From a virus (Duplodnaviria; Heunggongvirae; Uroviricota; Caudoviricetes): 34,410 nucleotides of DNA. Below the pieces are notes generated by a model. The model did no database searches. It was given only the letters and a program-made list of their open reading frames with translations, and was not told the DNA's origin. Positions 3,894 through 27,364 of the stretch are shown one piece after another. Each line of letters starts with the position of its first letter. Position 1 is the stretch's first letter. The DNA lies in the IMG/VR virus record IMGVR_UViG_2778261135_000004. One strand, given 5' to 3'. A program made the position numbers and the translations under genes.

Positions 3894-4165
3894 GCATTCG
3901 TATTGAAATTGGCGAACGTTATGTCGTTACCAGTGACAGCTTTCAGTTTATTCTCCACGAGAAAAAGAGAGCGGAAAGCGGTAAAAACGCCGGTCAGGAA
4001 TGGCTGGCGGTGGTTGGTTATTACCCGAAATTAAGCCAGCTCGTTTCCGGCCTGATGCATCACGATATTCTGACCGGAAGCGCAAAGTCTTTTGCTGATT
4101 TAAACGCGCAGGTTGAGCAACTCAGCAGGCGTTGTTCAGAGGCTTTTGGCTCATATGGCCGTTAA
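3890..4165 (+). CDS. Hypothetical early protein (P2 orf83-like), 91 aa
   Basis: Translationally coupled ORF immediately upstream of A; overlaps A start by 11 nt. Confidence 0.75.
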   Translation: MSIRIEIGERYVVTSDSFQFILHEKKRAESGKNAGQEWLAVVGYYPKLSQLVSGLMHHDILTGSAKSFADLNAQVEQLSRRCSEAFGSYGR

Positions 4166-6422
4166 AGCCTCCGGGCGTTTTGTCCCTCCGTCAGCATTTG
4201 CCGCAGGCACCGGTAAGACGTTTACCGGTGCTTATGCATGGAACGCGCCACGTGAGGCTGTCGGGCGCGAAAGACCCCTTACACGTGACGAGATGCGTCA
4301 GGTGCAAGGTGTTTTATCCACGATTAACCGCCTGCCTTACTTTTTGCGCTCGCTGTTTACTTCACGTTATGACTACATCCGGCGCAATAAAAGCCCGGTG
4401 CACGGGTTTTATTTCCTCACATCCACTTTTCAGCGTCGTTTATGGCCGCGCATTGAGCGTGTGAATCAGCGCCATGAAATGAACACCGACGCGTCGTTGC
4501 TGTTTCTGGCAGAGCGTGACCACTATGCGCGCCTGCCGGGAATGAATGACAAGGAGCTGAAAAAATTTGCCGCCCGTATCTCATCGCAGCTTTTCATGAT
4601 GTATGAGGAACTCAGCGATGCCTGGGTGGATGCGCATGGCGAAAAAGAATCGCTGTTTACGGATGAGGCGCAGGCTCACCTCTATGGTCATGTTGCTGGC
4701 GCTGCACGTGCTTTCAATATTTCCCCGCTCTACTGGAAAAAATACCGTAAAGGACAGATGACCACGAGGCAGGCATATTCTGCCATTGCCCGTCTGTTTA
4801 ACGATGAGTGGTGGACTCATCAGCTTAAAGGCCAGCGTATGCGCTGGCATGAGGCGTTACTGATCGCTGTCGGGGAGGTCAATAAAGACCGTTCTCCTTA
4901 TGCCAGTAAACATGCCATTCGTGATGTACGTGCACGCCGCCAGGCAAATCTGGAATTTCTTAAATCGTGTGACCTTGAAAACAGGGAAACCGGCGAGCGC
5001 ATCGACCTTATCAGTAAGGTGATGGGCAGTATTTCTAATCCTGAAATTCGCCGGATGGAGCTGATGAACACCATCGCCGGTATTGAGCGTTACGCCGCCG
5101 CAGAGGGTGATGTGGGGATGTTTATCACGCTGACCGCGCCGTCAAAGTATCATCCGACACGTCAGGTCAGAAAAGGCGAAAGTAAAACCGTCCAGCTAAA
5201 TCACGGCTGGAACGATGAGGCATTTAATCCAAAGGATGCGCAGCGTTATCTCTGCCGTATCTGGAGCCTGATGCGCACGGCATTCAAGGATAATGATTTA
5301 CAGGTCTACGGTTTGCGAGTCGTCGAGCCACACCACGACGGAACGCCGCACTGGCATATGATGCTTTTTTGTAATCCACGCCAGCGTAACCAGATTATCG
5401 AAATCATGCGTCGCTATGCGCTCAAAGAGGATGGCGACGAAAGAGGAGCCGCGCGAAACCGTTTTCAGGCAAAACATCTTAACCGGGGCGGTGCTGCGGG
5501 GTATATCGCGAAATACATCTCAAAAAACATCGATGGCTATGCACTGGATGGTCAGCTCGATAACGATACCGGCAGGCCGCTGAAAGATACTGCTGCGGCT
5601 GTTACCGCATGGGCGTCAACGTGGCGCATCCCGCAATTTAAAACGGTTGGCCTGCCGACAATGGGGGCTTACCGTGAACTACGCAAATTGCCTCGCGGCG
5701 TCAGCATTGCTGATGAGTTTGACGAACGCGTTGAGGCTGCACGTGCCGCCGCAGACAGTGGTGATTTTGCGTTGTATATCAGCGCGCAGGGTGGGGCAAA
5801 TGTTCCGCGTGATTGCCAGACTGTCAGAGTCGCCCGTAGCCCGTCGGATGACGTTAACGAGTACGAGGAAGAAGTCGAGAGAGTGGTCGGCATTTACGCG
5901 CCGCATCTCGGCGCGCGTCATATTCATATCACCAGAACGACGGACTGGCGCATTGTGCCGAAAGTTCCGGTCGTTGAGCCTTTGACTTTAAAAAGCGGCA
6001 TCGCTGCGCCTCGGAGTCCTGTCAATAACTGTGGAAAGCTCACCGGTGGTGATACTTCGTTACCGGCTCCCACACCTTCTGAGCACGCTGCAGCAGTGCT
6101 TAATCTGGTTGATGACGGTGTCATCGAATGGAGTGACCCGGAGGTCGTGAGGGCGCTCAGGGGCGCATTAAAACACGACCTGAGAACACCAAACCGTCAG
6201 CAAAGAAACGGAAGCCCGTTAAAACCACATGAAATTGCACCATCGGCCAGACTGACCCGGTCGGAAAGAATGCAAATCACCCGTATCCGCGTTGACCTTG
6301 CTCAGAACGGTATCAGGCCGCAGCGATGGGAGCTTGAGGCGCTGGCGCGTGGCGCGACTGTAAATTATGACGGGAAACAATTCATGTATCTGGTCGCTGA
6401 TGAGTGGATAGGTTTTAGGTGA
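4155..6422 (+). CDS. A: Replication initiation endonuclease A (rolling-circle initiator), ~755 aa
   Basis: Begins MAVKASGRFVPP... at ATG 4155 (ORF track start 4113 is an upstream extension); contains the HxH-type motif (TPHWHMMLF) and the Tyr-containing region (YIAKYISKNIDGY) expected of P2 gpA-family initiators. Confidence 0.9.
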   Translation: MAVKASGRFVPPSAFAAGTGKTFTGAYAWNAPREAVGRERPLTRDEMRQVQGVLSTINRLPYFLRSLFTSRYDYIRRNKSPVHGFYFLTSTFQRRLWPRIERVNQRHEMNTDASLLFLAERDHYARLPGMNDKELKKFAARISSQLFMMYEELSDAWVDAHGEKESLFTDEAQAHLYGHVAGAARAFNISPLYWKKYRKGQMTTRQAYSAIARLFNDEWWTHQLKGQRMRWHEALLIAVGEVNKDRSPYASKHAIRDVRARRQANLEFLKSCDLENRETGERIDLISKVMGSISNPEIRRMELMNTIAGIERYAAAEGDVGMFITLTAPSKYHPTRQVRKGESKTVQLNHGWNDEAFNPKDAQRYLCRIWSLMRTAFKDNDLQVYGLRVVEPHHDGTPHWHMMLFCNPRQRNQIIEIMRRYALKEDGDERGAARNRFQAKHLNRGGAAGYIAKYISKNIDGYALDGQLDNDTGRPLKDTAAAVTAWASTWRIPQFKTVGLPTMGAYRELRKLPRGVSIADEFDERVEAARAAADSGDFALYISAQGGANVPRDCQTVRVARSPSDDVNEYEEEVERVVGIYAPHLGARHIHITRTTDWRIVPKVPVVEPLTLKSGIAAPRSPVNNCGKLTGGDTSLPAPTPSEHAAAVLNLVDDGVIEWSDPEVVRALRGALKHDLRTPNRQQRNGSPLKPHEIAPSARLTRSERMQITRIRVDLAQNGIRPQRWELEALARGATVNYDGKQFMYLVADEWIGFR

Positions 6423-6688: not shown

Positions 6689-9040
6689 ATGTTAAAGAGG
6701 ATTAAATTAATAGAGGGCGTAGGTAACTATATTAAAGCTCGCTCCAGCTCTTATGAGTTTAATAACATGAATGTTATCTACGGTGAAAATAGACATGGTA
6801 AAAGTACTCTTTGTGACATCTTTTATTCTTTATCAACGAATACTCCTGAATTGGTTGTTAACAGAAAGACTATTCTGGAGGGAGATGGTGAAGTAATTCC
6901 AAGGATTGATTTACAATTCACAGAGGGGAGTTCAAATAGAGTTGTTTCATTTTATGTAGATAAATGGTCAGGATTACCACCACCAGATTCTAAATTATAT
7001 ATCTTTGATCAGAGTTTTGTTCATAGAAATGTAATGGCAGGTACAGTATCTAATCGAGAAAACTCTGAATGTGTTACTGCATTTATTTTGGGTGAAGACA
7101 ATGTTGCTGCTTTTGAAGCTCTGGAAAAGGAGAATGCAGAATTAAGAAGTTTAAGAGGTTCGTTAAGAAGTAAAAAAGATTTAATTCAATCACACCAAAT
7201 TGATAACGTTGATGAGTATGCTAATAGTGAGCCTGTCATAACAGATTATGATTGCGTTGACTCAAAAATAAATGAGCTTATTAAGTCAATACAAGAAGTT
7301 GAAAAGAAGAAAACAGCCGTCAAATATATTAAAGCAAGGCCGTTGTTTAATTTAATTAACTGTACACCAAAGTTGAAAGATATTTCAATTAGGGTTAATA
7401 AATGTCTTTCTTCTGGAATGGCTACAATTCATGACGATGCACTTTCTATATTAGAGCGACATAAAGAGAGAATAAAGGCTCACGATCATTTTAATGGATG
7501 GATCTCAAACGGGCTTGGTATGGCCACAGAAATATGTCCATTTTGCGGTCAGAGTATATCAGGAGAATCAAAAGAGCTGATTAGTGCTTATAAGGATTCA
7601 TTTGATGAGTCATTTATGCGCTTTATTGAAAGTACAAAAAAAGAATTAAAAGAAATAAGGCGGATTGATTTTTCATTTATCTCATTAAATGTAATTGATG
7701 ATGTACATAGCAAAAACATTGATGTTTTGTCACAGTATTTAGAGAATGAGATAAAAAATGAATTAAGTAATAATGGAAGGTTTGAGTCATGTTGTGCTAT
7801 TTATAATCAAGTAAGAAATGATATATTGACATTTAACCAAGATCTACTTAAGGCTCAGCAATCACTGGAGTGTATATATGATGAGAAAGAATTAGCTGTA
7901 TACAACGAAATGAAGGGGTTTGATTTTTCGGCTCTTCTACAATTTGAGCATGAAATTCATGGCAAATTGGAATCATACAATAGCATTATTAATCAGCTCA
8001 ATGATGAGTTGGTGAAGTATAAAGAAAGTATCAATTCCACCAAATTAGATGTATTACTGGGAATCTATCAAAAAGATCTTGAGCAGTGGGAATCTAATAA
8101 AAAAAGATTATTGCTTGAGCCAGATTGTCGAGAATATCTTGAACTGAAAAAAGAAATAGATATTAGGGAAAAAAACTATAATGAGAAGAAGAAAACATTA
8201 GAGGAATGCCAGGAGCAATTTTTAAACAAATATTTTGAGCACATTAATTCTCTGTTCTGTTCTGTTGGATCTAGTAAATTTTCTATAAATAAAAAAATAA
8301 ACAGGCAGGGTACAAAAATTGTTTATGAACTTGACGTTTCATTTAATGGGAAGGCAGTTGGAAAAAACAAACTTAATTGTTTGTTTAGTGAGTCAGATCG
8401 CCGAGCTTTGGCTTTGTGCATCTTTCTTTCTAAAATTTACTTGTTACCTAATGATGAGAAATCAAAAGCTATTCTTATTATGGATGATCCTGTAACAAGT
8501 TTTGATGAGGAAAGAATATCTTGTATTTTGCAGAAGTTGTATGAATTACAGCCTTATGTAAAACAGATGTTTATTACTACACACTATAAAGGAATGGCAG
8601 CAAAGACATCTCAAAAATTTAATTTGGATAGAATTCTTCAGATCAAACAAGGTCAAGACGGTTCTAATTTTGAACCGCTGAAGGTAGAGCAATTAATAGC
8701 TTCAGACCATGAGAGATCCTATGAGAGGATTGTTGATTTTATAAATGGTGTGGATACTGATAAGACAATAATACTATCTTTAAGGCCATATCTTGAATCA
8801 GAATTCCGTTCTCGTTATCGCAAACAACTGACAGACTGCAACTTAAATGATAGAACGGATTTTTCTGTGTGTATTAATCGACTGGCTGAAGATGGTATTT
8901 TGGAAGAGGAGACGGCCAGAAGAATTCATGGGTTTAGAACTGCACTCAATGAGCCTATGCACGTTATCCGTGAATGGACTGATGAAGATATGAAAAGTTA
9001 TGCGCAGGATATGCTACGCCTAATATATACAGAACTTTAA
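6689..9040 (+). CDS. Cargo gene at the tin/old hotspot: Rad50/RloC-like ABC ATPase with CxxC coiled-coil insert and uncharacterised C-terminal domain, 783 aa (candidate anti-phage defence protein)
   Basis: Walker A GENRHGKST (aa 32-40); long K/E-rich coiled-coil insert with CPFC (aa 283-286); signature-like SESDRRALAL (aa 567-576); Walker B/D-loop ILIMDDPVTSFD (aa 595-606); H-loop TTHY (aa 631-634); ~150-aa C-terminal domain without obvious TOPRIM motifs. Strongly AT-rich relative to the prophage backbone; RBS AAGGAAAAAGA upstream. Confidence 0.8.
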   Translation: MLKRIKLIEGVGNYIKARSSSYEFNNMNVIYGENRHGKSTLCDIFYSLSTNTPELVVNRKTILEGDGEVIPRIDLQFTEGSSNRVVSFYVDKWSGLPPPDSKLYIFDQSFVHRNVMAGTVSNRENSECVTAFILGEDNVAAFEALEKENAELRSLRGSLRSKKDLIQSHQIDNVDEYANSEPVITDYDCVDSKINELIKSIQEVEKKKTAVKYIKARPLFNLINCTPKLKDISIRVNKCLSSGMATIHDDALSILERHKERIKAHDHFNGWISNGLGMATEICPFCGQSISGESKELISAYKDSFDESFMRFIESTKKELKEIRRIDFSFISLNVIDDVHSKNIDVLSQYLENEIKNELSNNGRFESCCAIYNQVRNDILTFNQDLLKAQQSLECIYDEKELAVYNEMKGFDFSALLQFEHEIHGKLESYNSIINQLNDELVKYKESINSTKLDVLLGIYQKDLEQWESNKKRLLLEPDCREYLELKKEIDIREKNYNEKKKTLEECQEQFLNKYFEHINSLFCSVGSSKFSINKKINRQGTKIVYELDVSFNGKAVGKNKLNCLFSESDRRALALCIFLSKIYLLPNDEKSKAILIMDDPVTSFDEERISCILQKLYELQPYVKQMFITTHYKGMAAKTSQKFNLDRILQIKQGQDGSNFEPLKVEQLIASDHERSYERIVDFINGVDTDKTIILSLRPYLESEFRSRYRKQLTDCNLNDRTDFSVCINRLAEDGILEEETARRIHGFRTALNEPMHVIREWTDEDMKSYAQDMLRLIYTEL

Positions 9041-20942: not shown

Positions 20943-23261
20943 ATGAGCACAAAATTCAAAACCGTTATCACCACTGCCGGTGCAGCAAAGCTGGCAGCGG
21001 CAACCGCACCGGGAGGGCGGAAGGTCAACATTACCACGATGGCCGTCGGGGATGGCGGTGGTAAATTGCCTGTCCCGGATGCCGGACAGACCGGGCTTAT
21101 CCACGAAGTCTGGCGACATGCGCTGAACAAAATCAGCCAGGACAAACGAAACAGTAATTATATTATCGCAGAGCTGGTTATTCCGCCGGAGGTGGGCGGT
21201 TTCTGGATGCGTGAGCTTGGCCTGTACGATGATGCGGGAACGTTAATTGCCGTGGCGAACATGGCCGAAAGTTATAAACCCGCACTTGCCGAAGGCTCAG
21301 GGCGTTCGCAGACCTGCCGCATGGTCATCATCGTCAGCAGTGTGGCCTCAGTGGAGCTGACCATTGACACCACAACGGTGATGGCGACGCAGGATTACGT
21401 TGATGACAAAATTGCAGAGCACGAACAGTCACGACGTCACCCGGACGCCTCGCTGACCGCAAAAGGTTTTACTCAGTTAAGCAGTGCGACCAACAGCACG
21501 TCTGAAACACTGGCCGCAACGCCGAAAGCGGTAAAGGCCGCGTATGACCTTGCTAACGGGAAATATACCGCACAGGACGCCACCATAGCGCGAAAAGGCC
21601 TTGTCCAGCTCAGTAGTGCCACCAACAGCACGTCTGAAACGCTCGCCGCAACGCCGAAAGCGGTAAAGGCAGCATATGACCTTGCTAACGGGAAATACAC
21701 TGCACAGGACGCCACCACAACGCGAAAAGGCCTTGTTCAGCTCAGTAGCGCCACCAACAGTGATTCTGAAACGCTTGCGGCAACGCTAAAGGCGGTAAAG
21801 GCTGCGTATGACCTTGCTAACGGGAAATACACTGCACAGGATGCCACCACCGCGCGAAAAGGTCTTGTCCAGCTAAGTAGCGCCACCAACAGTGATTCTG
21901 AAACACTGGCCGCAACACCAAAAGCGGTGAAGTCTGCCTATGACAATGCTGAAAAACGTCTTCAGAAAGATCAGAATGGTGCGGATATTCCGGGAAAGGA
22001 TACCTTCACGAAAAATATCGGTGCCTGTCGTGCTTATAGCGGCGCTTTGAGTACTGAAGCCGGAAACTGGACAACCGCTCAGTTTATTGAATGGCTGGAT
22101 TCCCGTGGTGCATTTAATCATCCGTACTGGATGTGCAAAGGCTCCTGGTCATATGCAAATAACAAAATCATTACGGATACCGGATGTGGTGATATCCACC
22201 TGGCTGGTTGTGTCGTCGAGGTCATGGGAATTAAATCTGCAATCACTATCCGAGTGACCACGCCGACAACATCAAGTGGTGGCGGTACAACCAGCGCGCA
22301 ATTCACTTACATTAATCATGGGGACGGCTACTCCCCCGGCTGGCGTCGTGACTGGAATCGTCAGGGCGACGAAATGACCGGAACGATTAATCAGGACGGC
22401 GGTAGCCAGAATGCCTATATGTCTACGGCCTTATGTTCAGGCACCAGAGGCGGCAAAAAATATCTCAGAAAGTTTCGTGGTGGAGAAGGAGACACTGTCT
22501 GGCATGAAACAGTACAGGGCGGGGTAGTTCGCTGGGCGACTGGTAATACTGATGCTCAGGAAGAATTATCACTCAGCTCCGCTTATGGTCTCCGTTCAAG
22601 AGGTGAGATTACATCACTCAGTGCTAATGGTCTGCGCATTGCTTATGGCAATTATGGATTCTTTATCAGGAATGATGGCGGCAGCACATATTTAATGCTG
22701 ACGGCCTCTGGCGATAAATTTGGGACATGGAACGGTTTAAGGCCGCTGACTATCAATAACGCCAATGGCGGAGTGTCAATGGGGCATGGCCTGAGTGTTA
22801 CAGGTGATATTGTCTCAAGTACCAAAGTACGTGCCGGTAGCGGGAAAAAGTTCACGGTCAGCAGCAGCAATACATCCACGAAGGAAGCCGCATTCAATTT
22901 GTGGGGAAACTCAAGTCGTCCGGTGGTGGCTGAATTAGGTGATGATGCAGGCTGGCATTTTTACAGTCAGAGAAATACAGATAACAGCATCACTTTTGCT
23001 GTTAACGGGCAGGTATCACCATCTAACTATAGTAATTTTGATTCACGCTATGTCCGGGATATCCGGCTTGGTGGTGCTGCCACATACAAACCTGCGAACA
23101 ATGGCATGACATGGACACATCAGGCACCGTCCGGGTGTGTATATTCCGGCATTATTGTTCAGGATACCGGCTCAAACTCTGCCGATAACATTGGTGGCGT
23201 ATATTACAGACCGGTGCAGAAATACATTAACGGGACTTGGTATAACGTGGCGCAGGTATAA
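20943..23261 (+). CDS. H: Tail fibre protein H, 772 aa, with tandem-repeat region and divergent C-terminal receptor-binding portion
   Basis: N-terminal region matches P2 gpH (MSTKFKTVITTAGAAKLAAATAPG...); the middle carries ~3.7 in-frame copies of a 44-aa repeat; the C-terminal half is unlike P2 H as I recall it and the protein is about 100 aa longer than P2 H. Confidence 0.9.
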   Translation: MSTKFKTVITTAGAAKLAAATAPGGRKVNITTMAVGDGGGKLPVPDAGQTGLIHEVWRHALNKISQDKRNSNYIIAELVIPPEVGGFWMRELGLYDDAGTLIAVANMAESYKPALAEGSGRSQTCRMVIIVSSVASVELTIDTTTVMATQDYVDDKIAEHEQSRRHPDASLTAKGFTQLSSATNSTSETLAATPKAVKAAYDLANGKYTAQDATIARKGLVQLSSATNSTSETLAATPKAVKAAYDLANGKYTAQDATTTRKGLVQLSSATNSDSETLAATLKAVKAAYDLANGKYTAQDATTARKGLVQLSSATNSDSETLAATPKAVKSAYDNAEKRLQKDQNGADIPGKDTFTKNIGACRAYSGALSTEAGNWTTAQFIEWLDSRGAFNHPYWMCKGSWSYANNKIITDTGCGDIHLAGCVVEVMGIKSAITIRVTTPTTSSGGGTTSAQFTYINHGDGYSPGWRRDWNRQGDEMTGTINQDGGSQNAYMSTALCSGTRGGKKYLRKFRGGEGDTVWHETVQGGVVRWATGNTDAQEELSLSSAYGLRSRGEITSLSANGLRIAYGNYGFFIRNDGGSTYLMLTASGDKFGTWNGLRPLTINNANGGVSMGHGLSVTGDIVSSTKVRAGSGKKFTVSSSNTSTKEAAFNLWGNSSRPVVAELGDDAGWHFYSQRNTDNSITFAVNGQVSPSNYSNFDSRYVRDIRLGGAATYKPANNGMTWTHQAPSGCVYSGIIVQDTGSNSADNIGGVYYRPVQKYINGTWYNVAQV
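21461..21960 (+). repeat. In-frame tandem repeat, 132-bp unit (44 aa), ~3.7 copies, within H
   Basis: Repeating unit KG(F/L)(T/V)QLSSATNS(T/D)SETLAAT(P/L)KAVKAAYDLANGKYTAQDAT..R seen directly in the H translation, and mirrored as an internally repeated antisense ORF (21473..21718); resembles the phage tail-fibre repeat found once in P2 H. Confidence 0.85.
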
Positions 23262-23264
23262 TTT

Positions 23265-23792
23265 ATGCAGCATTTGATAAATATAACGGCAGGTAATCCA
23301 AAAACGGTTGAACAATATCAATTGACAAAGGACTTTGATGTTGTCTGGTTTTTTTCAGAAGATGGTAAGAACTGGTACGAAGAACAAAAGTATTTTGCTG
23401 ATGACACGATAAAAATAGCGTACGACAAAGATAATATTATCCGCTATGTGGAAAAGGATGTGACAGCTATCAGACCGGATGGATTAAGTGTTGTTGAAGT
23501 GCCGGATATTACTGCTAACCGACGGGCGGACATTTCAGGGGGCTGGATGTTTAAGGACGGTACAGTGATTAAACGAATTTATACGGCAGAGGAATTGCAG
23601 CAGCAGGCAGAAAATCGGAAAGCCAGACTTCTTGCAGATGCTGAATCCGTGATTTTGCCGCTGGAGCGCGCTGTCAGGCTGAACATGGCAACAGAGGAGG
23701 AGCGCACACGGCTGGAGGCTTGGGAACGCTACAGCGTTGTGGTCAGTCGTGTGGATCCTGCAAATCCTGAATGGCCGGAAATGCCGCAATAA
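23265..23792 (+). CDS. G: Tail fibre assembly chaperone G, 175 aa
   Basis: 175-aa ORF immediately after H; P2 gpG length and sequence. Confidence 0.9.
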
Positions 23793-23825
23793 GTTGTATG
23801 AACTCTGGTGTGAGCTTACATATCT

Positions 23826-23885
23826 ATGGCACAGAGTAAAGCCTAATCTGACAGTCCGCTCTGTGCCAAAAGCGGACTGTCAAAT
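23826..23885. terminator. Nested inverted repeats between convergent G and cargo gene (putative bidirectional terminator)
   Basis: TGGCACAGAG/CTCTGTGCCA (23826..23835 / 23860..23869) and AATCTGACAGTCCGC/GCGGACTGTCAAATT (23844..23858 / 23871..23885) can form alternative hairpins; no clean T-run. Confidence 0.4.
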
Positions 23886-23990
23886 TGCATCAAAAGAGCA
23901 TTGATATTACGTTTATTAATATTTCTCAATAATCCCTCAATACTATAAAGGGTTTAGAGACCTAGTTCTTACTTATATCTGGATACAGAT

Positions 23991-25787
23991 CTACGATTTA
24001 ATATCAAATAAAGAACTTTCACCTTTGAATATATTCACCCAATGGTATTGTATGTATTTCATACGGTTTGTGTTTCCGTTGACGTAAGGAATGGTTCTTC
24101 TTTCGATTGTAGAATACATTTGCGCAAGGTGTGTGGTCATTTTTTTATCTCGGCTAATTGCAACTTTTCCATCTGAACGAATGGCAATGAAACCATTTTC
24201 GAAAAGTGAATCACATATTGCACATTGCAACATTGCTATGTTATCGAAATCTGCTCGCTCTTCATGTGTGCATTTAGATCTAGGTTTCACATGCGCAGCA
24301 ATGAGAATAGCATGCGGCCATGAATTTCCGCAAATCTCACAGACCCCTACATTATTTTCATTGCTATATAACAGCGATTGTTGAAGGAGCAGGTATTCTC
24401 GAAGTAATGCTTGTTCTGCACGAGTCTTTCTTAAAAAGGTTCCCAGCACATCTAGTGAATCCAATTCGCTTCTGATGTCTGTTATTTTTCTTCTTATACT
24501 ATCTATTCTTTCCATTCTGGTATCGATAGGCCGAGCCACTTGCTTGGTTGGAATATATTCATCATCAAGTGGTTTGTAGTAATCATTTCGTCTCCCGCCA
24601 CCTTCTTTGTAATACAAGGTTGGATAACTAAAAATCAATGATTTGAAAGCTTGCGGGATTTTCCCTTTTAATTCCCTACCAATGCTCATTGAGTCTAAGG
24701 GGCCACCATTTGATTTTATAGCATTTAAGGCAATAACTTGATAATGGATAGTACCACTGACATCTTCCAATTGGAGTTCTGAATAAAGGCTATCTCCAGG
24801 TATTCTATAACCGGGTGTTGACTCTTGTAGTAATCCAGTTTTCAAACAATAATCGTCCAGAGCACCATCGGCGCTTTCTAGAAGCTCTAGGCAGGGGGGT
24901 TGACGGGCATCTGCACTACGACGGAAGTTGTGTGTAAGGGCCCTTTTTAAAGCAGATATAACTCTTTCAACTTTTAGTGGGTTTTTATAATGAATAAAAA
25001 TTGGTTTGAGAATTCGACTAACTCTTTCGTCACGAGACGTGAAAGCATAAAAACGTCCATTAGAAATAGATAAAAAATCTTCTTCAGTTGAAATTAAGTC
25101 AGATATATATTGCACCTTAATTTCATCAGGAATTTCCCTAATAAAACCAGGAGGGTCTGACTCCCATGAACAAACAGCAAGTTTTTCTATTGAAAATAAA
25201 CCACCAAAATACGTTGATATCTTTCCGGCATATGTGATTAAATCGCTAGTAATGGATTTGGGATTATGATTTTCTTCCAGTATGATTTGATGTCCATTAT
25301 ATTCATGAAATTTGAAATGTGCATTTATTTCGAATGATTTTGCTAACTGAGTAACTATAGGAAGATAAATGTTACTATCAATTACACCTGCTGCTATAAG
25401 AGTGCTTTGGACTTTATTTGAAAATACTGGTTTTTTAGTGGTCGTTATTTTTCCGATTAATATTTCAATCAATTTCTTCAATTGAATAAGGTCAGTTTTC
25501 GCAGCTAGGGTAATCGTATCACCTGCTACCAAGCCTCGGTTGAGCCGACTTAGTTCTGACGGCAAGTCTTGATTTAAGAATTTTGATATGATCTGACGTG
25601 CTCTTTCTCTCGTGACCTCTTTCTTGAGTTCAGGTAGTTTACCCAGCGTATCTAAGGTCAAGTTTCTGCTAGAAGATGTCTGAGTAAAGTGTGCTTTCAA
25701 TATGATCTTAGTAGTTTCTGATGTATTCTTCTTTTGATAAATGCGATCAATCAGTTCTGTAATAATTTCTTGGTAGGTTTTACTCAT
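23991..25787 (-). CDS. Cargo gene at the G-FI (Z/fun) hotspot: ~598-aa protein with C-terminal HNH-type nuclease motif and N-terminal HTH-like segment (candidate anti-phage defence nuclease)
   Basis: C-terminal motif CEICGNSWPHAILIAAHVKP...ADFDNIAMLQCAICDSLFENGFIAI (CxxC ... AAH ... N ... CxxC ... F-x-NG; HNH/His-Me finger, HNH_2-like by eye); N-terminal segment TLDTLGKLPELKKEVTRERARQIISKFL resembles sigma-70 region-4-type HTH. Start taken at ATG 25787; the track start 25799 is a GTG. Strongly AT-rich. Confidence 0.8.
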   Translation of the reverse strand: MSKTYQEIITELIDRIYQKKNTSETTKIILKAHFTQTSSSRNLTLDTLGKLPELKKEVTRERARQIISKFLNQDLPSELSRLNRGLVAGDTITLAAKTDLIQLKKLIEILIGKITTTKKPVFSNKVQSTLIAAGVIDSNIYLPIVTQLAKSFEINAHFKFHEYNGHQIILEENHNPKSITSDLITYAGKISTYFGGLFSIEKLAVCSWESDPPGFIREIPDEIKVQYISDLISTEEDFLSISNGRFYAFTSRDERVSRILKPIFIHYKNPLKVERVISALKRALTHNFRRSADARQPPCLELLESADGALDDYCLKTGLLQESTPGYRIPGDSLYSELQLEDVSGTIHYQVIALNAIKSNGGPLDSMSIGRELKGKIPQAFKSLIFSYPTLYYKEGGGRRNDYYKPLDDEYIPTKQVARPIDTRMERIDSIRRKITDIRSELDSLDVLGTFLRKTRAEQALLREYLLLQQSLLYSNENNVGVCEICGNSWPHAILIAAHVKPRSKCTHEERADFDNIAMLQCAICDSLFENGFIAIRSDGKVAISRDKKMTTHLAQMYSTIERRTIPYVNGNTNRMKYIQYHWVNIFKGESSLFDIKS

Positions 25788-26173
25788 AGCAATCCACACT
25801 CATAAAGTACTGTAAAATGATCCGACTGATTTCTGTAATCATCTCTCATCGGTCCATACCTAACTTGCGGCTAATGAAATGAATATAAAATCATCTAATG
25901 CCTTTTGCTAATTTGATAATGCTATATTTCTTGGAAAATTACACTCTAAAAGGTTAAGTCTGCTCCTCGCTCAAAGCAGACTGTCAGATTTGATAGCGTT
26001 TGGGCTATGTAAATTGTCAGTTGGAAAATGAGTGAGTGCAAATCATGACAGGCAGGCGGATTACCCGCTTTTTCTTTGTCTGTTGTTTCATCCACTGACC
26101 AGCCAGGTCAAATAGCGTCTCATGCACTGCCCAACAGAAAATAGTTGCACCCATTAACCACGGAGTTAAACGG

Positions 26174-27364
26174 ATGAGTGACTATCATCACGGCGTGCAG
26201 GTGCTGGAGATTAACGACGGCACCCGCGTCATTTCCACCGTATCCACTGCCATTGTCGGCTTGGTCTGCACGGCCAGCGATGCGGATGCGGAAACCTTCC
26301 CCCTCAATAAACCTGTGCTGATTACCAATGTGCAGAGTGCAATTGCAAAGGCTGGTAAAAAAGGCACGCTGGCGGCATCGTTGCAGGCCATCGCTGACCA
26401 GTCAAAACCGGTCACCGTTGTTGTGCGTGTGGAAGACGGCACCGGCGACGACGAGGAAACGAAACTCGCGCAGACCGTATCCAATATCATCGGCACCACC
26501 GACGAAAACGGTCAGTACACCGGACTGAAAGCCCTGCTGGCGGCGGAGTCGGTAACCGGTGTTAAACCGCGTATTCTCGGTGTGCCGGGACTGGACACCA
26601 AAGAGGTGGCTGTTGCACTGGCATCAGTCTGTCAGAAGCTGCGCGCTTTCGGGTATATCAGCGCATGGGGCTGTAAGACCATTTCCGAGGTGAAAGCCTA
26701 CCGCCAGAATTTCAGCCAGCGTGAGCTGATGGTCATCTGGCCGGATTTCCTCGCATGGGATACGGTCACCAGCACCACCGCCACCGCGTATGCCACCGCC
26801 CGTGCGCTGGGTCTGCGTGCCAGAATCGACCAGGAGCAGGGCTGGCATAAAACGCTGTCCAATGTCGGGGTGAACGGTGTTACCGGCATCAGCGCATCTG
26901 TATTCTGGGATTTGCAGGAGTCCGGCACCGATGCTGACCTGCTTAACGAGTCAGGCGTCACTACGCTGATTCGCCGTGACGGTTTCCGATTCTGGGGTAA
27001 CCGTACCTGCTCTGATGACCCGCTTTTCCTCTTTGAAAACTACACCCGCACCGCGCAGGTGCTGGCCGATACGATGGCTGAGGCGCACATGTGGGCGGTG
27101 GACAAGCCCATCACCGCAACGCTGATTCGCGACATCGTTGACGGCATCAATGCCAAATTCCGTGAGCTGAAAACAAACGGCTATATCGTGGATGCGACCT
27201 GCTGGTTCAGCGAAGAATCCAACGATGCGGAAACCCTCAAGGCCGGAAAACTGTATATCGACTACGACTATACCCCGGTGCCTCCTCTCGAAAACCTGAC
27301 CCTGCGCCAGCGTATCACCGATAAATACCTGGCAAATCTGGTCACTTCGGTTAACAGCAATTAA
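26174..27364 (+). CDS. FI: Tail sheath protein FI, 396 aa
   Basis: 396-aa ORF; P2 gpFI length and sequence. Confidence 0.95.
   Translation: MSDYHHGVQVLEINDGTRVISTVSTAIVGLVCTASDADAETFPLNKPVLITNVQSAIAKAGKKGTLAASLQAIADQSKPVTVVVRVEDGTGDDEETKLAQTVSNIIGTTDENGQYTGLKALLAAESVTGVKPRILGVPGLDTKEVAVALASVCQKLRAFGYISAWGCKTISEVKAYRQNFSQRELMVIWPDFLAWDTVTSTTATAYATARALGLRARIDQEQGWHKTLSNVGVNGVTGISASVFWDLQESGTDADLLNESGVTTLIRRDGFRFWGNRTCSDDPLFLFENYTRTAQVLADTMAEAHMWAVDKPITATLIRDIVDGINAKFRELKTNGYIVDATCWFSEESNDAETLKAGKLYIDYDYTPVPPLENLTLRQRITDKYLANLVTSVNSN

Follow-up and report, generated by a model that had tools for sequence, protein, structure and literature searches.

Among described enzymes, the closest to the protein examined here are VcaM4I (EVE-HNH; PDB 6yex) and TagI (SRA-HNH; PDB 6ghs), which are NTP-independent type IV restriction endonucleases. 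In VcaM4I, the sensor domain is followed by a linker helix that is auto-inhibitory and by a dimerising HNH domain which, when isolated, is a toxic non-specific nuclease (PMC7897488). In a second group, the wH-HNH enzymes along with their PUA-wH-HNH counterparts, the protein is 224-496 amino acids (aa) long, contains one winged helix (wH), is mostly haloarchaeal and reads Dam-type Gm6ATC, and many members are toxic to E. coli that is Dam+; for DpnI, HhiV4I and related fusions it is proven that the winged helix reads the modification (PMC11037411). As for the genomic setting, the fun locus is a second defence-enriched hotspot of P2 and the source of three validated systems (Vassallo et al. 2022, PMC9519451), and hotspots also hold non-defence cargo, e.g. 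partition systems and toxins (PMC9122126); the P2 hotspot analysis of Rousset et al. 2022 dealt with the other locus (A-Q) and makes no mention of HNH. The present analysis concerns the fun-hotspot cargo gene of the P2-like E. coli prophage recorded as IMGVR_UViG_2778261135_000004 (Caudoviricetes; 34,410 nucleotides (nt), the whole of which is called the window below), which encodes a helix-turn-helix (HTH) / winged-helix array / HNH endonuclease of 598 aa.

The cargo gene (23991..25787, minus strand; stop codon 23991-23993) lies between gene G, for tail fibre assembly (23265-23792), and gene FI, for the tail sheath (26174-27364). An earlier note, made from the sequence of this stretch alone, had described a single, strongly AT-rich gene of about 598 aa in the G-FI slot, antisense to the late genes and in the place of Z/fun, and this description was borne out by the open reading frame (ORF) list and the RefSeq annotation, by a GC content of 0.367 for the whole gene against ~0.56 in its flanks (0.32-0.40 across the gene and 0.55-0.58 in the neighbouring late genes), and by reference P2, in which fun(Z) lies in the same slot and likewise on the opposite strand. 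The ORF (23991..25799, minus strand) yields 602 aa from a GTG start and 598 aa (MSKTYQ...) from the ATG at 25787; the shorter form is identical to RefSeq WP_089633334 (E. coli SBF45, 100% match) and is also the modal length of the homologues.

The protein can be assigned with good confidence the order HTH, about four wH units, helical hairpin and HNH. It is read here, tentatively and at somewhat under an even chance, as a solitary, horizontally mobile single-polypeptide endonuclease of sensor-linker-HNH type IV design, carried as lysogenic-conversion cargo of the fun hotspot. A role in anti-phage defence is probable in itself, and a type IV-like, modification-dependent mechanism is a more doubtful proposition. 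The multi-domain HTH and wH sensor is new, whereas the sensor-linker-HNH arrangement (VcaM4I, TagI) and wH-HNH fusions (PMC11037411) are already known as types of type IV enzyme. The suggestion in the earlier note of a single-protein nuclease immunity belonging to no nameable family thus stands in so far as no catalogued system matched (PADLOC), but not in respect of the kind of enzyme, both of these designs having been described.

Domain architecture and comparison with known enzymes

The HNH (beta-beta-alpha-Me) nuclease domain occupies residues 479-598 (23994..24353, minus strand), with a Zn-type CxxC...CxxC site formed by C483, C486, C522 and C525, H499 as the general base, N516 in a structural role and D526 and E530 as metal ligands. 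The motifs CEICG, AAHVKP, DFDNIAML, CAIC and LFENGF, from which the domain had originally been recognised, were all found within residues 483-533 (nt 24189-24341). Their conservation among homologues also held, H499, N516, D526, E530 and the four zinc-site cysteines being invariant in an alignment of 25 sequences. VcaM4I was the only solved relative found by sequence, in a 106-residue alignment that covers residues 483-588 and runs to the VcaM4I C-terminus, and its H224, N241, D250 and D254 map in that alignment onto H499, N516, D526 and E530. In VcaM4I the H-N-H triad consists of H224, N241 and D250, with D250 in place of the second histidine, and the most severe loss-of-function variants are H224A, D250A and D254A (PMC7897488). 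The assignment of the catalytic residue is confirmed by a distant subfamily of ~500 aa, because there the D526 position is occupied by the canonical CxxCH histidine. By these alignments the catalytic centre is intact and conserved, and the domain resembled solved HNH domains in fold. The ~500-aa subfamily itself (P0039, P0041-P0046) keeps the HTH and wH array, lacks the helical hairpin and ends in a canonical HNH domain that scores above threshold with both Pfam HNH and HNH_2; it was seen on a few metagenomic or draft contigs only. Distant family members score 25-37 bits on Pfam HNH_2.

In other proteins, this HNH subtype follows N-termini of EVE, SRA, phosphorothioate-binding, Cro-type HTH or unknown type, and it is common with other N-termini on Streptomyces and Bacillus plasmids, one Cro-type HTH fusion among them, as expected of a shuffled effector. 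Matches in PADLOC were partial and C-terminal only (generic "HNH" and type II restriction endonuclease models, E 5e-9 to 1e-5), and the PHROG match was to a family of unknown function and lay over the linker and HNH domain.

The N-terminal helical domain (residues 1-116; 25440..25787, minus strand) contains an HTH at residues 40-73 (nt 25569-25670) that resembles sigma-70 region 4.2. The TRERARQI-type HTH pointed out in the earlier note is present at residues 59-66, T59-R-E-R-A-R-Q-I66 corresponding to sigma-70 TRERIRQI, and V58, R60, E61, R62, R64 and Q65 were invariant in the 25-sequence family alignment. In a single BLASTP comparison, residues 42-73 were identical to the C-terminus (region 4) of E. 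coli RpoD at 14/32 positions (E 2e-4), and alignment of the family profile with RpoD region 4 using hhalign gave a probability of 66% (E 5.7e-5); the alignment spans 30 columns, and the turn has an insertion of 4 residues. The likeness to sigma-70 is genuine but confined to the region 4.2 HTH: NCBIfam RpoD models matched weakly over residues 4-72 (14-15 bits against cut-offs of 354-531), Pfam Sigma70_r4 gave no score, and no Pfam Sigma70 model matched any part of the protein. A sigma-70 family sigma factor was ruled out, as only ~30 residues of HTH resemble region 4.2 and the models stay far below their cut-offs.

The ~400 aa that follow had been described as having no motif that could be named. 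This did not hold: residues 117-415 (24543..25439, minus strand) are predicted to form a tandem array of about four wH units, each of helix-helix-helix-strand-strand pattern, the last wing being a near-invariant Tyr/Arg-rich hairpin (YPTLYYKEGGGRRNDYYKPLDD). Modelled alone, this region had a predicted local distance difference test score (pLDDT) of 84 and a predicted template modelling score (pTM) of 0.70, and its fold matches were almost all winged-helix proteins, including JetA, MukF, LOTUS, Z-alpha, cullin WH-B, the MarR family, ScpA, RecQ1 WH and the wH domains with which DpnI and BpuJI read DNA. The number of units, four, was read from the repeating secondary-structure pattern, and the SelB, JetA and MukF matches directly support at least two wH units in tandem. 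The wing of the fourth unit (near-invariant Y388, Y392, Y393, K394, G396, R399, Y404 and Y411) may be a reading surface. At the sequence level, a profile of residues 1-415 gave no match to PDB sequences at E up to 10, and scans of the N-terminal, middle and linker pieces and of the whole protein with Pfam, NCBIfam, PHROGs and PADLOC returned only the HNH domain and the weak RpoD matches.

Between sensor and nuclease lies a long helical hairpin (residues 416-478; 24354..24542, minus strand), with helices at 423-444 and 448-474 in the AlphaFold2 (AF2) secondary structure. Its position corresponds to that of the linker helix that auto-inhibits VcaM4I (PMC7897488), by analogy with which it may hold the nuclease inactive.

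The protein resembles VcaM4I and TagI in its catalytic set (H/N/D and D or E), in the order sensor, helical linker, HNH and in being solitary, without a methyltransferase. It differs in the sensor, which in those enzymes is a base-flipping domain of the PUA superfamily of ~150 aa and here comprises the HTH and ~4 wH units over ~415 aa, in the linker, which is a two-helix hairpin, and in keeping the full CxxC...CxxC zinc site. With the wH-HNH fusions (PMC11037411) it shares a winged-helix DNA reader joined to HNH, the usual lack of an adjacent methyltransferase and a type IV logic; unlike them it has 598 aa with an HTH, ~4 wH units and a hairpin, and no wH sequence similarity to them was detected. 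DpnI and BpuJI also read DNA with winged helices, but they are PD-(D/E)XK nucleases, and the similarity is at the level of fold only; their specificity is not transferable.

Phosphorothioate-dependent enzymes of the ScoMcrA/SprMcrA type share weak HNH similarity only (residues 483-588), and their model NF045808 (NCBIfam) reached 20.8 bits against a cut-off of 180, in the HNH part alone, with no sulfur-binding or SRA domain detected. A GmrSD / DUF262-DUF1524 enzyme was rejected since the translation contains no DGQQR and Pfam gave no match besides HNH_2; the absence of this motif and of any ATPase or helicase motif, as the earlier note had it, was confirmed in the translation and the Pfam scan. 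None of the catalogued defence systems in PADLOC-DB v2.0.0 (including PD-T4, PD-T7, PD-Lambda and Rst) matched over the full length, and no Pfam, NCBIfam, PDB or PADLOC model spans the whole protein. Like the cargo gene, P2 Fun(Z) and the hotspot's PD systems occupy the G-FI slot and run antisense to the late genes, at a locus associated with a lysogenic-conversion or defence role, but no tblastn match to Fun(Z) was obtained in the phage collection, P2 included, and no PADLOC PD-system model matched.

Family distribution and genomic context

A word-indexed search of 5.8 billion clusters identified 24 full-length relatives (Enterobacterales, Pseudomonas, Vibrio cholerae), and the hosts of the family comprise E. 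coli, Pantoea, Pseudomonas, Vibrio and Idiomarina. When a profile of the N-terminal 415 residues was scored against all of 1.84 billion representatives, 24 proteins were found at E <=1e-3, and each complete relative of the N-terminal module that was scanned had HNH or HNH_2 at its C-terminus. By these searches the sensor module is very rare, its pairing with another effector not being seen among the 24 relatives. Among 5,426 complete E. coli genomes, 1,039 had matches to the flanks of the locus and one contained the cargo gene; a tblastn search of the protein against 50,697 phage records (P2 included) gave no match, and Foldseek matches among viral structures (BFVD) were limited to HNH-domain-only proteins.

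Every domain of the protein is under purifying selection, dN/dS being 0.20-0.23 overall against homologues of 94, 81 and 78% identity and 0.11-0.39 domain by domain. The gene is AT-rich whatever the host (GC 0.34-0.44).

Known or candidate defence genes immediately adjoin the homologue in all four of the non-P2 loci scanned, a placement consistent with a defence function. In Pantoea vagans its direct neighbours are Shango (SngA, SngB, SngC; E 1e-101 to 1e-279) on one side and, on the other, a helicase gene of Mokosh-like (MkoC/MkoA) type, an 81%-identical copy shares its island with genes for anti-restriction, RadC, CbtA/CbeA, an integrase and type I restriction-modification, the Pseudomonas putida homologue lies within an integrase-borne island, and other immediate neighbours are the PADLOC candidates PDC-S15, PDC-S25/ThsA-like SIR2 and PDC-S31. 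No methyltransferase or conserved partner gene was found in the six different neighbourhoods examined, the HsdM genes ~3 kb from the homologue at locus L017 being part of a separate type I system. The same gene therefore circulates in three pools of defence genes: a prophage hotspot, an array of integron cassettes and defence islands on chromosomes.

The integron copy, that of Vibrio cholerae, is a single-gene cassette between VCR/attC repeats of superintegron arrays, in four different neighbourhoods. Sirona and Nemetona are HNH-related single-gene defence systems from integron cassettes of V. cholerae N16961 (Darracq et al., bioRxiv 10.1101/2024.07.02.601686), and are described as relatives of lambda NinG (PF05766), a family to which the cargo protein has no match. 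Because the Vibrio homologue occurs on ~10-15 contigs only, it lies outside the heavily sequenced N16961 lineage, and by this rarity and the published description the cargo protein is unlikely to be either system. In one superintegron (L004:6193-7779), the cassette just upstream encodes a ThsA-like SIR2 protein of 528 aa (PADLOC PDC-S25, E 6.5e-162), so that two putative defence cassettes stand side by side.

At the P2 hotspot itself, 24 cargo regions with the same two junction sequences (the window's included) contained 18 unrelated longest-ORF families, and no second copy of the HNH cargo gene was present in the 23 others. The tabulation of G-FI contents in P2-like prophages proposed by the earlier note showed a slot holding many unrelated cargo genes. 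Alternative cargo of the slot in other E. coli prophages (L011:1705-2460, L012:1782-3125, L013:1785-2483) consists of hypothetical proteins of 251 and 447 aa, with no PADLOC match, and a 232-aa "lysogenic protein" that weakly matches the DRT-associated RTasTM model (E 1.4e-6).

Proposed mechanism and competing explanations

In the proposed mechanism, the gene product would protect the lysogen from other phages. Its unusually large sensor, the sigma-70 region-4.2-like HTH together with ~4 tandem wH units, would read DNA and, as host DNA must be spared, would engage only a feature missing there, most likely a non-canonical or hypermodified base. The helical hairpin would keep a dimeric HNH auto-inhibited until the sensor had bound its target, after the proposal made for VcaM4I. 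E. coli, Pantoea and Vibrio cholerae are Dam+. Dam-m6A (Gm6ATC) dependence was excluded by this host range, and Dam/Dcm methylation is an unlikely target because the hosts carry these marks.

Several observations weigh against this reading. The sensor contains five DNA-binding units, far above the number in known type IV sensors, and its side of the protein lacks the sensor-swapping signature usual in type IV enzymes, the complete relatives all ending in HNH. No SRA, EVE, YTH, ASCH, SBD or DUF3427 modification reader was detected in the Pfam scan and fold matches, and the best fold matches of the array are kleisin-like, the wH domains of kleisins being ones that make protein contacts. The AF2 models were built on 12-25 sequences only. 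The match to Pfam HNH_2 (PF13391; residues 483-536, E 3e-4) is marginal, its 21.0 bits lying exactly at the threshold of 21. The candidate sigma-70 promoter of the gene (TTAGCA-18-TATATT; 25882..25911, minus strand; 9/12 matches in a consensus scan) is weak, promoter-like sites in the region being no commoner than in shuffles.

Were the gene defensive, the P2 fun hotspot would gain a compact single-gene system that is very rare, and the range of sensors in HNH restriction would widen from single PUA or wH readers to an HTH and wH array; were the enzyme also modification-dependent, its specificity would be other than Dam/Dcm and it might serve as a reagent for detecting phage-type hypermodified DNA. 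Its value at present is that of a rare, well-defined and tractable candidate for experimental screens, but single-gene nuclease defence candidates at hotspots are now common.

The best surviving alternative, a rather unlikely one, is a conditional or abortive-infection nuclease, in which the HTH and wH units would sense a phage protein or infection-specific DNA (free ends, replication intermediates, Z- or branched DNA) and free a non-specific HNH against phage and possibly host DNA. The solitary, defence-associated context fits this too, the protein contains no known modification reader, and VcaM4I, whose HNH is toxic alone and restrained by the linker, demonstrates that a nuclease of this type can be gated. 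Against it, every characterised close relative found of the HNH subtype is a direct modification-dependent restriction enzyme, and the sequence suggests no trigger. A particular form of infection sensing, which we regard as a long shot, is that the region-4.2 look-alike mimics the host sigma factor as bait for phage proteins that bind sigma-70 region 4 (T4 AsiA-type anti-sigma or sigma-appropriating proteins); if true, binding of such a protein would free the auto-inhibited HNH, amounting to guard or decoy sensing of infection within a one-protein nuclease.

The residues of E. coli sigma-70 region 4.2 that touch the -35 element are known from sigma-70/-35 structures. R60, E61, R62, R64 and Q65, all invariant in the family, are identical to sigma-70 at these positions, as would suit a nuclease directed to a site: the HTH and wH units would recognise a particular sequence absent from the host, e.g. 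one in competing phages, satellites or plasmids, with the HNH cutting close by. Five DNA-binding units would likewise suggest a long or composite site. However, avoiding self by sequence without a methyltransferase would be hard across E. coli, Pantoea, Pseudomonas, Vibrio and Idiomarina, and the 4 residues inserted in the turn as compared with sigma-70, together with an hhalign probability of only 66%, also count against this explanation, which is improbable. Both it and the abortive-infection nuclease stay alive next to the type IV reading because of the absence of a reader domain, the large DNA-binding capacity, the kleisin-like fold matches and the lack of sensor swapping.

Homing endonucleases commonly combine HNH with an HTH-type DNA-binding module, and where free-standing their genes occupy intergenic positions, between conserved phage genes. 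The cargo gene has both the design and the position, and it is found with flanking palindromes in unrelated loci, where homology breaks at the palindromes, as might be expected of a selfish element spreading its own cassette without benefit to the host. Yet such an element should recur, and it did not (0/50,697 phage records, 1/5,426 complete E. coli genomes despite 1,039 with matching flanks, 0/23 other cargo regions, and HNH-domain-only matches in BFVD); moreover the slot is filled by many unrelated non-HNH cargo genes, the palindrome on the downstream side is a dispersed repeat of generic kind and not a site particular to this gene, and the Vibrio copy travels as an integron cassette. A free-standing homing endonuclease was rejected on this count and is very unlikely, which agrees with its dismissal in the earlier note, where intergenic placement was nonetheless a weak reason and the rarity of the gene in phage records and E. 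coli is the better one. A DNA-binding regulator or other lysogenic-conversion function outside defence, with the HNH employed in repair, recombination or prophage maintenance, might be suggested by the several DNA-binding domains, the sigma-like HTH among them, and by the partition systems and toxins that hotspots also bear (PMC9122126), but is equally unlikely in view of the strict conservation of the catalytic centre, the defence or candidate defence neighbours in 4/4 non-P2 loci and the movement of the gene as integron cassette and defence-island cargo.

Cargo boundaries, junction palindromes and other prophage features

Alignment with three other P2-like prophages carrying different cargo showed that the P2-like backbone stops near 23882 and restarts near 25957. 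The span 23793-26173, taken in the earlier note as cargo, does contain it, but the ends of that span are conserved P2 backbone and the exchanged part is ~23883-25956 (~2.07 kb), which holds only the HNH gene and its upstream region. The ~150 nt upstream of the gene, around the candidate promoter, are conserved with enterobacterial homologues.

Each junction is marked by a palindrome. At the left junction, a palindrome with a 12-bp stem (TGACAGTCCGCT-N10-AGCGGACTGTCA; 23849..23882), a copy of a dispersed repeat resembling repetitive extragenic palindromes (REP-like), marks the end of homology with P2-like prophages bearing other cargo; at the right junction, the P2 backbone restarts at a palindrome with an 8-bp stem (AGTCTGCT-N10-AGCAGACT; 25957..25982). 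The junction cores are GTCCGCT-N10-AGCGGAC and GTCTGCT-N10-AGCAGAC. In the window, the left palindrome has one exact match against 0.02 expected and the right one against 0.01. Folded as DNA, the left palindrome is very stable (dG -13.6 and -14.3 kcal/mol, z -6.9 and -7.8), and the right one gave dG -7.0 kcal/mol (z -2.2).

Hairpins also flank enterobacterial homologues outside P2 (L014:41-64 and 2144-2167; L017:7911-7934 and ~5755-5790), the left type lying downstream of the homologue and a related right type upstream of it at both loci, and homology breaks there. A scan of species-representative genomes located the left-junction element (consensus ~AT-GTCCGCT-TYTGGCAC-NN-AGCGGAC-AT) at 144 sites in 120 stretches of diverse genomes (L143-L262), from Enterobacterales, Hyphomicrobiales, Nitrosospira, Idiomarina and others, spanning many genera, with several copies per genome and unconserved flanks; examples are L159 and L161 (metagenome-assembled genome of Hyphomicrobium), L175-L179 (Pantoea sp. 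WMus005) and L196-L201 (Mixta). Most of the sites lie where a gene ends at its 3' side (at a median of 88 nt past the stop codon), beside housekeeping genes, and only one of the 120 stretches is near P2 genes. The element matched no Rfam family and was not assigned to any named REP class. A dedicated cassette-exchange signal common to the P2 hotspot and chromosomal islands was rejected for the downstream hairpin because it belongs to this dispersed REP-like family beside housekeeping genes, with 1/120 stretches near P2 genes. The hairpins are better viewed as palindromes of a generic kind and possible recombination breakpoints in cargo exchange.

At L017:7911-7975, a downstream-type hairpin is followed directly by an upstream-type hairpin (TGTTCCGCTCTGAGCTAGGAGCGGAAC), as if two hairpin-bounded units abutted, and the next gene encodes a DUF2971 protein with a PADLOC PDC-S31 match. 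In the window, GGCACAGAG (23828-23836) lies a little upstream of the left palindrome. It is exactly complementary to CTCTGTGCC (23859-23867), the loop and stem edge of that palindrome, so that an alternative pairing is possible, and other P2-like prophages conserve both segments.

The other hotspot of the prophage, between gene A (4113-6422) and the Q / portal side, is an AT-rich island (GC 0.32) whose lone gene (6689-9040, plus strand) encodes a 783-aa AAA_13 ATPase matching PADLOC PDC-S06 (E 1.6e-153) and resembling LmuB, so that the prophage bears one putative defence gene per hotspot. Within tail fibre gene H (20943-23261), a 132-nt unit is repeated in tandem at 21489-21944 (3.5 copies, 88% identity), and this repeat encodes ...SSATNS(T/D)SETLAATPKAVKAAYDLANGKYTAQDAT... 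units.

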